Of a DNA stretch of 64,000 bases, positions 24,772 through 26,484 are shown one piece after another; the stretch's first letter is position 1; the number at the start of each line of letters is the position of its first letter. This DNA is from Minisyncoccota bacterium. GTDB taxonomy: Bacteria; Patescibacteriota; Minisyncoccia; Phycocordibacterales; JABAAK01. The stretch spans positions 557,942 through 621,941 of the forward strand of contig OZ244939.1 in assembly GCA_965222235.1 (NCBI GenBank), given 5' to 3'. A program made the translations under genes and the position numbers. The notes below the pieces were generated by a model that saw nothing but the letters and a program-made list of their open reading frames with translations, ran no database searches and was not told where the DNA came from.

Positions 24772-26484
24772 TTGCACTGGTGGGGCGATTTTAATTCATT
24801 CTGTTTCAACAATATGGATAATGCAACTCAAAGCACAACACAAAAATATTTCATATATGCACGAAAGAGCACGGACACGGAGGATAAACAGGTGCGGAGT
24901 ATTACTGACCAGATTACCGAGCTTCGTCTTTTTGCTGAACGGGAGGGGCTTGTGGTGTTAGAGGTTTTAGAGGAGCGGCAGAGTGCAAAGGAGCCCGGGA
25001 GACCAGTTTTTAATCGTGTTCTTTCACGCATATATGATGGGGAAGCAACGGGTATTTTAGCGTGGCACCCCGATAGGTTGGCACGGAATAGTATAGATGG
25101 CGGACAGATAATTCATCTCATAGACACTGGTAAACTTGCCACGCTAAAATTTCCCACCTTTTGGTTTGAACCGACCCCGCAGGGTAAGTTTATGCTCTCC
25201 GTCGCGTTCGGACAGAGTAAGTATTACATAGACAACCTTTCGGACAATGTTAAAAGAGGTATGCGGAATAAAGCAAGACGAGGTGAGTATCCACACCAAG
25301 CCCCAATTGGCTACTTAAACGACAAAGTCCGAAAGGTTGTCGTACCGGATCCGGTGCGTGCCCCAAAGATTAAAAAGATGTTTAAGGAGTATGCGTCTGG
25401 TACCTATTGCTTACGAGAAATGAGAGACCAAGCACCACTTACCTTGCAGGGTAAGAAACCAAGTATTTCTGTTACCAGACGCATACTCTCCAACCCGTTC
25501 TACTACGGTATGTTCACCTATGCCGGTGAATTGTACGAAGGCACGCACAAGCCACTCATCACTAAGAAACTTTTTGATAAAGTGCAACATGTTTTAACAG
25601 ATAAAAGCAGACCAAAAACTCGCCTGAAAACACCACACGCTTTTAGAGGGCTTTTGCTCTGTGCTCATTGTGATTGCTCCATTACTTCTTCTGTACAAAA
25701 AGGACACATTTACTATCACTGCACCCGCAAACGAGGTAACTGTGGCAGTAAGTATGTCAGAGAAGAAACCCTCACTGAGGAAATCGCAAAAGCCCTTCAA
25801 AAAGTTTCTTTGCCCGACCGACAGGGACACCAGATCATGCAGAAGGCAAAAGTGCTTGCCGAGAAAGAGCAAAGTCGGTCGGGCACTTCCGCCCAACATT
25901 TTCAGCAGGCATTGATGACCTGTAATCAAAAGATTGACTGTCTCCTTGATATGTCTCTTAATAACGAAATTACCCCTGAAGAGTACCGCAACAAGAAAAA
26001 GACACTGCTCAATGAAAAAACAGATATCAAGCAAAAACTGAAAGATGTTGAGCGGAAGAGTACTGTGTGGCTTGAACCGCTCCTCTCATTCATATCCCAA
26101 GCAATAGCAACGGAAAAAGTCTCTTTGAGTGCCTCCCTCACGGAAAAGGCGGAACTTTTCCGTTCGGTTGGCTTGAACCGAAAATTAGATAAATTTTCGG
26201 TTCAGTACGAGCCACGCAACGCGTGGCACATCCTTTATTCTTCCCCCTTTTTGCGCGCCCATAGGGCGCGCCATATCAATAGGTCCGTGAAAGCGGACTC
26301 CATCTTCCCATCAAGCCTCCCCGGCAGGATTCGAACCTGCGACCTACGGCTTAGAAGGCCGTCGCTCTATCCAACTGAGCTACGGGGAGATAAATATAGT
26401 ATATATCTTGTTTATTTAGTAAGAAACCCCGGCCATTGTAGTATATTTTCGATTGTTACCTTTCAATGTAGGGATATACCTTAA
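24772..26484 (+). CDS. Large serine recombinase (resolvase/invertase-type catalytic domain + recombinase domain + zinc ribbon); annotated ORF reads through an R-element and the antisense of tRNA-Arg, so the true C-terminus is probably near residue ~470
   Basis: It has IYARKSTDTEDKQVRSITDQ (catalytic Ser region), GILAWHPDRLARN, and the zinc ribbon CAHCDCSITSS...YYHCTRKRGNCG. The last ~100 codons, ...PGRIRTCDLRLRRPSLYPTELRG, are the antisense translation of R(c) and tRNA-Arg. Confidence 0.8.
   Translation: MHWWGDFNSFCFNNMDNATQSTTQKYFIYARKSTDTEDKQVRSITDQITELRLFAEREGLVVLEVLEERQSAKEPGRPVFNRVLSRIYDGEATGILAWHPDRLARNSIDGGQIIHLIDTGKLATLKFPTFWFEPTPQGKFMLSVAFGQSKYYIDNLSDNVKRGMRNKARRGEYPHQAPIGYLNDKVRKVVVPDPVRAPKIKKMFKEYASGTYCLREMRDQAPLTLQGKKPSISVTRRILSNPFYYGMFTYAGELYEGTHKPLITKKLFDKVQHVLTDKSRPKTRLKTPHAFRGLLLCAHCDCSITSSVQKGHIYYHCTRKRGNCGSKYVREETLTEEIAKALQKVSLPDRQGHQIMQKAKVLAEKEQSRSGTSAQHFQQALMTCNQKIDCLLDMSLNNEITPEEYRNKKKTLLNEKTDIKQKLKDVERKSTVWLEPLLSFISQAIATEKVSLSASLTEKAELFRSVGLNRKLDKFSVQYEPRNAWHILYSSPFLRAHRARHINRSVKADSIFPSSLPGRIRTCDLRLRRPSLYPTELRGDKYSIYLVYLVRNPGHCSIFSIVTFQCRDIP
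26190..26315. repeat. R-element-related segment forming the immediate 3' flank of tRNA-Arg(TCT); core variant catcttcccatcaagcct abuts the tRNA 3' end
   Basis: It is the reverse complement of 24540-24650. Confidence 0.7.
26316..26389 (-). tRNA. tRNA-Arg (anticodon TCT)
   Basis: The minus-strand cloverleaf reads ctccccg-ta-gctc-agttggata-gagc-g-acggc-cTTCTaa-gccgt-aggtc-gcagg-ttcgaat-cctgc-cggggag-g. All stems are Watson-Crick. Confidence 0.8.

Follow-up and report, generated by a model that had tools for sequence, protein, structure and literature searches.

Serine integrases such as those of PhiC31, Bxb1, A118/LI and TP901-1 have a common set of domains (catalytic, recombinase, zinc ribbon and coiled coil) and a common fold, and act on short att sites with a small common core; the Rutherford/Van Duyne model places the outer half-site motif of attP ~5 bp farther from the centre than that of attB. 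We have analysed a 64,000-nt stretch of the Minisyncoccota contig OZ244939.1 (the window, whose positions are used throughout), which contains a recombinase gene and a putative mobile element of this general kind: the domain set, the fold, the short core and the 5-bp displacement were all met with again, although the window enzyme has only ~13–19% sequence identity to the solved serine integrases. In contrast to the known serine integrases, however, the family to which this enzyme belongs appears to be directed to the 3' end and T-arm of tRNA genes of many types, the attP crossover lies inside the integrase open reading frame (ORF), a second, inverted attP is always present, and the minimal elements have no evident recombination directionality factor. 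Very probably, positions 20276–26318 are an integrated serine-integrase element of ~6 kb, one of a family widespread in Patescibacteria (CPR), with its attP in the integrase gene and an inverted spare attP, and two recombinase fragments elsewhere in the window stem from older relatives of this element.

Other described systems resemble the locus in part. In myxophage Mx8 (intP/intX) and in the SSV1-type archaeal integrases, attP lies in the integrase coding sequence, and integration into a tRNA gene alters or splits the C-terminus of the enzyme. The likeness to the present case consists in the position of attP within int and in the altered C-terminus, but those enzymes are tyrosine recombinases without a spare inverted attP, whereas here a serine enzyme would exchange ~18 residues and keep its body intact. 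The recombinase genes of the yeast 2-micron plasmid (FLP/FRT) and of Salmonella Hin likewise lie between inverted repeats that hold the enzyme's own target site, and the circle that we infer for the present element would, as in 2-micron, have two unique regions parted by inverted repeats. FLP, however, is a tyrosine recombinase and Hin a small enhancer-dependent invertase, while the element described here resides at a tRNA gene and is not a replicon, and its recombinase segment is not seen in both orientations. Finally, the defence and cargo islands found at tRNA genes (tycheposons, P4-like islands) are also small, also lie at tRNA 3' ends and also carry exchangeable defence cargo in tandem arrays, but their integrases are tyrosine recombinases, their att sites are direct repeats by which the tRNA 3' end is duplicated, and nested inverted repeats are absent. 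In the full-text literature searched, we found no account of the architecture reported here. As a serine-integrase integrative element it is of a known kind, but of an unusual and strongly conserved design.

The ORF at 24772..26484 (plus strand), 570 aa long with a TTG start at 24772, was confirmed in the window; homologs and the public annotation use the ATG at 24814, which gives a product of 556 aa, identical to a public protein (P0001). Pfam assigned the domains Resolvase (PF00239, E=1.4e-20), Recombinase (PF07508) and Zn_ribbon_recom (PF13408). Residues Y15, R17, the nucleophile S19 and the DRLAR motif (D87-R88-L89-A90-R91) were invariant in 62 homologs, among which the zinc-ribbon cysteines C283, C286, C303 and C310 also showed no variation. 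An AlphaFold2 model (mean predicted local distance difference test score, pLDDT, of 79.8) comprised a catalytic domain, a recombinase domain, a zinc ribbon and a coiled coil at 335–415, with helices at 335–382 and 388–415 and with pLDDT <50 for residues 493–556. A sequence search of the PDB with the recombinase returned nothing beyond a weak match of the N-terminal domain, so a fold search was needed to place the protein; the top Foldseek matches were full-length serine integrases (9y66, 9dxh, Bxb1 9iu2, PhiC31 9rah and 4kis; E from 5e-21 to 2e-11). The size of the protein, 500+ aa, and its integrase-type C-terminal domains ruled out a small invertase with a C-terminal helix-turn-helix (HTH) domain. 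By its sequence, the product of 24814..26484 is an intact large serine recombinase (LSR) of the integrase type, whose gene is present in the integrated (attR) form, residues 1 to ~480 forming the conserved body. Homologs number in the thousands, are ~490–535 aa long and come nearly all from Patescibacteria, and many of their C-termini resemble antisense tRNA. A subgroup of homologs (P0006–P0015 and others) is 817–932 aa long and has the same three Pfam domains, at ~42% identity over 80% of the query.

Self-comparison of the window revealed two nested inverted repeats, one of 108 nt and 100% identity (24538–24645 / 26211–26318) that encloses the recombinase gene, and one of 319 nt and 99% identity (I3, 20270–20588 / 24233–24551) that encloses restriction-modification cargo. 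They overlap by 14 nt, at a core. The 8-mer TCAAGCCT occurs exactly five times in the 64 kb, at 20276, 24538 (inverted), 26311, 47124 and 49906, and since every copy lies at a junction of the system this is not what would be expected by chance. The proposal of the initial annotation that the junctions are att sites was borne out. Written in one orientation, the three sites of the resident element are A, CCTCTTTTACCT + TCAAGCCT + TGTTCACAACC...; B, ...CCATCTTCCCA + TCAAGCCT + TGTTCACAACC...; and C, ...CCATCTTCCCA + TCAAGCCT + CCCCGGCAGGATTCGAACC (tRNA). Site B (24233..24645, minus strand) is made up of the near P' arm (24233–24551), the core, which reads AGGCTTGA at 24538–24545, and a copy of the P arm (24538–24645); because both element arms, P and P', are present in it, site B is a complete attP, in inverted orientation. 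This inverted attP, which had been overlooked before, is the main feature of the locus and is conserved in the family. The core is common to sites A and C, each of which also has one arm of B, and this identifies them as attL and attR, the hybrid sites that flank the element. At site A (core 20276..20283, plus strand), the core follows the 12-nt flank CCTCTTTTACCT and leads into the far P' arm (20270..20588, plus strand; 319 nt, 99% complementary to 24233–24551), so that the right side is common with site B and the left side is not. At site C (core 26311..26318, plus strand), the downstream P arm (26211..26318, plus strand; 108 nt, 100% identical to its inverted copy) and the core are followed by tRNA-Arg, whose last 4 nt the core overlaps. 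With the inverted spare attP situated between cargo and integrase, the integrase body comes to lie between P arms and the cargo (20589..24232, as characterized with Pfam) between P' arms. The cargo genes are an ORF at 20629–21357 (minus strand), a TaqI-like restriction endonuclease at 22066–22824 (plus strand) and a protein with Peptidase_S24 and N6_N4 DNA methyltransferase domains at 22772–24175 (minus strand).

The tRNA-Arg(TCT) gene found by ARAGORN at 26315..26389 (minus strand), the putative integration target, is intact and sits inside the 3' part of the recombinase ORF, and for this reason the C-terminal peptide ...PGRIRTCDLRLRRPSLYPTELRG of the recombinase is antisense tRNA. Sequence and ARAGORN thus confirm the initial observation that the full-length ORF runs through the repeat arm then called R(c), which is the downstream P arm, into antisense tRNA-Arg(TCT). 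The arm itself encodes residues 467–502 of the 556-aa form (481–516 of the 570-aa, TTG-start form), beginning at the EPRNAW hairpin. The final 40 codons of the 556-aa form are antisense tRNA, spacer and the end of an insertion sequence (IS): the TAA of the read-through ORF, at 26482–26484, lies inside the terminal repeat of an IS (26475/79–27441/46) with an rve_3 DDE transposase (26481–27395), annotated as 26475..27446 on the minus strand.

The native 3' end of the gene is found on the other side of the crossover. The minus strand of site B holds an orphan recombinase 3' end, with a native tail ...SSLVHNLLLELKKHFENTSSAPPTQ and a stop at 24468–24470. We rebuilt the attP-form ORF, in the window and in related loci, with the gene body and P arm continued through site B. 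Tails of the attP form had an interquartile range of 15–19 aa, and those of the attR form a range of 2 to >82 aa; the motif R[TMNS]x[FL] was present in 68/81 attP-form tails as against 3/81 attR-form tails. Examples of the attP form, each read to its stop, are CVLDEVRMYFGQNPQDFDE and RTLNEIRTFFKENP..., and in the window LVHNLLLELKKHFENTSSAPPTQ; among the window element and its nearest relatives L001 and L002 (76% aa identity), the tail differences are synonymous. The family is conserved up to EPRxAW (~residue 474), then come ~35 variable residues and the crossover, and then the conserved tail of ~18 aa, encoded on the other attP arm. The presence of a conserved tail after the junction implies that the crossover is inside the gene, and that integration trades the native C-terminus for antisense-tRNA sequence. 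A native stop near residue 470 had been suggested; the corresponding check on homologs uncovered instead the tail beyond the crossover and a native length of ~495–524 aa in the family (524 aa for the window gene), with ~18–22 final residues replaced on integration. The crossover falls ~18 codons ahead of the native stop in the family and 22 codons ahead of it in the window element, and the junction codon of the Ser, Gln and Asn types is TGG (Trp), the complement of the tRNA CCA end. The predicted attP is inside its own integrase gene, and because the crossover is within the ORF, read-through into antisense tRNA is the standard state.

To see how general these features are we used a genome set, made up of the nearest relatives L001 and L002 and 80 further loci, and a separate metagenome set of 80 loci, 61 of them testable. 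Both nearest relatives have the same nested repeats and a convergent tRNA-Arg(GCG). Across ~125 homologous Patescibacteria loci, a near-perfect inverted repeat of 60–200 nt brackets the gene. In the genome set it was found around 67/82 gene copies (in the other 15 the flanking sequence was too short or the repeat was not seen), with a median length of 120 nt, 100% identity in 37 copies and >=98% in 48; in the metagenome set it was found at 58/61 testable loci. A convergent tRNA gene adjoins 54/67 genome copies (Ser 28, Gln 11, Asn 5, Arg 3, Gly 2, and Tyr, Ala, Asp, Glu and Leu 1 each), and the arm extends 4–8 nt into the tRNA 3' end in 46 of these 54; in the metagenome set a tRNA lies at the end in 37/58. 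With antisense-tRNA endings standard at so many loci, the claim that cassette integration had broken the full-length gene had to be given up. A second inverted repeat (median 203 nt, 99.5% identity) was present in 30/41 loci with >3 kb of upstream sequence, and overlapped the first by 3–20 nt in 29/32. The triplets of A, B and C sites in these loci show the attL/attP/attR relations, with cores of 3–18 nt; a GC or CG dinucleotide, a candidate for a palindromic crossover, is within each core. Between the outer arms lie 1.2–9.4 kb of cargo, in which restriction-modification and defence genes are enriched (DNA methyltransferases, restriction endonucleases, type I/III subunits, helicases); the cargo genes mostly point away from the recombinase (exception in ~6/31 loci). 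The architecture is also present in a complete genome (CP174360.1, L015) and in contigs of several hundred kb, whereas viral contigs contained distant relatives only (30–45% identity), none of which has the repeats. The arms of one element are more alike than they are to those of the nearest other element (e.g. 100% vs 96–98%), which indicates that the two arm copies evolve in concert.

The geometry of the half-sites agrees with these assignments. A T-loop-like motif, [TC][TCG][CT]GAA, lies at an offset of 12 from the junction on the tRNA side, where it is the tRNA's own T-arm, and at an offset of 17 in P'. The difference in offset was +4 or +5 in 42/62 tRNA/P' pairs, the rest being for the most part artefacts of taking the first match to the pattern. 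The 5-bp displacement is the attP/attB geometry mentioned above, and supports the assignment of attP to site B and of attR to site C. It further suggests recognition of the tRNA T-arm (TTCGAAC) by the enzyme, with a mimic of this sequence in P' that lies 5 bp farther out from the crossover; such recognition would explain how one family uses many different tRNAs. We would expect the target attB to be the extreme 3' end of the tRNA gene, here tRNA-Arg(TCT), and the empty site to read ...CCTCTTTTACCT + TCAAGCCT + CCCCGGCAGG.... Integration by attP x attB would split the ORF at the core TCAAGCCT, leaving the gene body and P arm against the tRNA (attR, site C), where the ORF would read antisense tRNA to a chance stop, and moving the P' arm with the native tail to the far end of the element (attL, site A). 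The excised circle would hold two inverted attP regions that separate integrase and cargo.

The related loci contain several indications of movement. Protein clusters at 90% identity mix attP-form tails with several different antisense-tRNA tails, and close relatives of the window element occur at three tRNA-Arg isoacceptors: TCT (window), GCG (L001, L002 and L194) and CCT (L193). The element at tRNA-Arg(CCT) (L193:4871–11698) has a recombinase >90% identical to that of L002 at tRNA-Arg(GCG), yet these two have nothing in common beyond the P' arms and the recombinase module (87% nt identity), their cargo being unrelated. The L193 cargo is instead the four-gene restriction-modification set of L001 type, in the orientation opposite to L001; the two-gene core of the L001 cargo is inverted in the window, so that the homologous module has the same orientation in the window and L193. 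We consider the cargo, as far as such alignments can tell, to be both exchangeable and invertible. At L119:33–1940, a recombinase module lies between facing tRNA-Ser(GCT) (plus strand) and tRNA-Ser(TGA) (minus strand) genes, each joined to the same P arm, which implies that a spare attP can recombine with a second attB; recombination of the spare attP with a second tRNA, with inversion of a chromosome segment, would be expected to give this layout. Two other loci (L042 and L189) are arrays, in which an attP-form gene is followed by another cargo.

The spare attP is probably functional. Most likely, it would store an intact 3' end and att site, from which recombination between P arms could rebuild the full-length integrase in the integrated element; alternatively or in addition it would most likely serve as a second recombination site or as a regulatory or operator site. 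The exchange of tails presumably modulates integrase activity. Some features of the arms touch on regulation. A palindrome, CCACGCnnnGCGTGG, encodes the conserved EPRxAW motif and lies at the inner boundary of the arms (24626–24648 and 26213–26231 in the window; likewise in many loci), and the upstream copy forms a terminator-like hairpin followed by a T-run; this hairpin at 24626–24648 was the sole exception in promoter and terminator scans, which showed no excess over shuffled sequence. The inner arm ends fall at two conserved positions of the gene, between GGCT and CGAACC and at the palindrome CCACGCnnnGCGTGG, and in many Ser-type elements the upstream arm end is only ~15 nt 5' of the start codon; these positions, and the closeness to the start codon, hint at a role in expression control. 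It is conceivable, though doubtful, that the in-gene crossover and inverted spare attP together act as a self-contained control device in place of a recombination directionality factor. On integration, a conserved C-terminal helix would then be stripped off, which would lock or re-programme the enzyme, and rare P-arm recombination would restore to the body the native tail that is stored with the spare attP. In some elements the gene would also land downstream of the tRNA promoter. The enzyme might in this way be re-activated for excision, for a hop to another tRNA or for cargo exchange.

The two recombinase fragments of the window were compared with the resident gene by tblastn. The fragment at 5260..5457 (minus strand) corresponds, with 47% identity, to residues 247–311, a stretch that takes in the first zinc-ribbon CxxC; as reported initially, its frame passes directly into the 3' end of a tRNA-Asp gene (5185–5263, plus strand), and there is a GGG microhomology at the joint. 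The cargo of this tRNA-Asp element (5491..9256) is bracketed by inverted repeats (5491–5594/9153–9256 and 5683–5758/9091–9162), encodes an N6_N4 methyltransferase with a RAMA domain, an S24-domain protein and a Ymh protein, and ends just before gyrB (9338–11449). The layout deduced for this element is the canonical one after two deletions within the recombinase gene. The other fragment (46874..47116, plus strand) corresponds to residues 63–144 of the 570-aa form, at 60% identity, and is followed by a 13-nt half-site-like sequence and core D, TCAAGCCT at 47124; it had been described as ending exactly at the core, and does lie beside it, but stops 8 nt short. Core D begins a degenerate element without recombinase (47124..49913, cores D at 47124 and E at 49906) beside tRNA-Arg(GCG) (49910–49982, minus strand). 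It contains a P'-like arm, which to the right of core D is 74% identical to the resident P' over 62 nt, a D12 methyltransferase (47492–48721), a 369-aa ORF (48701–49810, minus strand) and a truncated inverted arm (49699–49837); core E adjoins the tRNA and has to its left 18 nt and then an inverted P'-like arm that lacks the first ~47 nt. The recombinase remnant to the left of core D is in the position expected for the recombinase of a neighbouring array element. The description of both fragments as truncated recombinase genes joined to att or tRNA junctions therefore stands, but they are not copies of the resident gene; from their divergence and context they are paralogs from different older members of the family, reduced by internal deletions. 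In both older elements, restriction-modification cargo bracketed by inverted repeats has outlasted the loss of the recombinase. The window does record several integrations of related recombinase elements at tRNA genes, as had been proposed.

Several observations count against the history of integration favoured here, or at least against its simplest form. The left flanks (12–13 nt) of cores A, D and E are nearly alike (CCTCTTTTACCT / CCCTTTTTACCT; positions 20264–20283, 47112–47131 and 49894–49913), and over 20 nt that take in the core, CCTCTTTTACCTTCAAGCCT, A and E match fully and D almost fully, so that a one-step history of integration is insufficient. Relatives at tRNA-Arg(GCG) have a flank that resembles these (L001, ACCTCTTTTACAT), and the similarity points either to conservation of an attB half-site or to an earlier exchange between the two tRNA-Arg sites. 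The D–E region departs from the exact canonical layout, and no directionality factor was evident in minimal elements with 1.2–1.6 kb of cargo. No empty attB for the window element was retrieved from the nearest genomes, in which synteny is lost (orthologs of the neighbouring rhodanese gene are 50–58% identical, with no tRNA-Arg near their loci), and no circular junction of the window element was retrieved. A flipped recombinase segment, with the tRNA on the upstream arm, was seen in 0/67 genome loci and <=1/58 metagenome loci; with no flipped segments, a role of the spare attP in restoring the gene by inversion is something we can only infer. Candidates for such forms were set aside on inspection. 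Of two apparently flipped metagenome loci, L102 has merely two tRNA-Gln genes that match each other, and L119 is the double-tRNA sandwich described above. As a candidate circular form, L024 (JAOAFZ010000010.1, 4636 nt), which has a family recombinase, non-collinear inverted repeats and no tRNA, is the sole locus with a terminal direct repeat (51 nt), but its layout is uninterpretable.

Other explanations fare less well than that of an integrated element with its attP in the gene. The locus might be primarily a site-specific inversion switch, of shufflon or Hin-like type, that phase-varies restriction-modification, the tRNA being incidental. Two nested, near-perfect inverted repeat pairs with a common core are what such a switch would have, homologous cargo does occur in both orientations relative to the recombinase (L001 vs the window and L193), and arm identity is higher within an element than to the nearest other element. 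We nevertheless regard it as unlikely: the orientation of the recombinase relative to the tRNA is fixed in ~90 loci, the three sites are related as attL, attP and attR and are not equivalent, enzymes >90% identical are found at different tRNAs, and the enzyme has the architecture of an integrase-type LSR, not that of a small invertase with a C-terminal HTH. Moreover, since both arms of a segment are identical, inversion would leave unchanged what the arms read into. A different account was implicit in the initial annotation, namely that successive cassette integrations used and then destroyed the resident recombinase, the ORF and the two fragments being three stages in the destruction of one gene. 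Both fragments do end at or near att or tRNA junctions, and multi-element arrays at tRNA clusters do exist (L042, L189). Yet read-through into tRNA is normal for intact genes (~90 loci), only the last ~18–22 native codons are exchanged, the catalytic and DNA-binding domains are all intact, the fragments are paralogs of 47% and 60% identity, and the internal breakpoints are those of ordinary deletions, one with the GGG microhomology. Nothing shows that later integrations used or destroyed the resident gene, and the fragments come from older elements; we judge this account very unlikely.

A further possibility is single-stranded mobility, in which pairing of the two inverted attP copies would create a stem of double-stranded attP, as in the CTXphi attP or the integron attC. 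The copies would indeed give a stem of ~430 bp with two loops, and it can be reasoned that the observed order is that of a single-stranded circle opened at one core. Serine recombinases, however, cut both strands of both partners, so that a stem substrate would leave hairpin-capped chromosome ends; this double-strand chemistry is incompatible with the scheme, the cargo is without rolling-circle, Rep or phage genes, and the relatives in viral contigs are distant and without repeats. We therefore hold it to be highly improbable. That the repeats and the read-through are artefacts of the assembly of a metagenome-assembled genome has one point in its favour, in that many contigs break exactly at repeat arms (e.g. 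L009, L010 and L040), but the architecture recurs in >120 independent assemblies from many studies, including the complete genome of L015, and the chance that it is artefactual is negligible.

Elements of this kind may be a main vehicle of restriction-modification and other defence genes in Patescibacteria. To our knowledge, these bacteria are largely without CRISPR, and their mobile elements have been poorly described. The family also offers a large natural series of serine integrases for many tRNAs, with att sites that can be read from genomes, and could serve integrase engineering; recognition of the T-arm, if true, would make it a naturally re-targetable family of serine integrases that reads a universal tRNA motif. 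The findings pose the question of why the element keeps a perfect inverted copy of attP and of its own gene's 3' end. They also mean that in public records the integrase ORFs of the family are systematically mis-extended into antisense tRNA.

Some other features of the window may be recorded here. It contains four DNA methyltransferase genes in 64 kb (5757–6944, 22772–24175, 46032–46823 and 47492–48721), all in or beside tRNA-linked elements, and in two of these elements a methyltransferase is paired with a Peptidase_S24 (LexA-like) domain. The IS at 26475–27446, which lies ~86 nt upstream of the 5' end of tRNA-Arg(TCT) and may affect the promoter of that tRNA, has a 100% identical inverted copy at 11605–12567 (963 nt, rve_3 DDE transposase, 31-nt terminal repeats). 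A large inverted duplication at 11468–19826, with arms of 122 + 627 nt that are 98–100% identical and one of which is split by this IS, encloses ~5.6 kb with genes for an FG-GAP repeat protein and for DUF805 proteins; 65 nt of its arm (19764–19828) recur with 100% identity at 47383–47447, inside the P'-like arm of the D–E element. Finally, two very large ORFs, of 2012 aa (39009–45047) and 1214 aa (641–4285), have repeated units of ~105 aa and ~400 aa, with Gly/Ser-rich tandem repeats at 44356–44522, and probably encode surface proteins.

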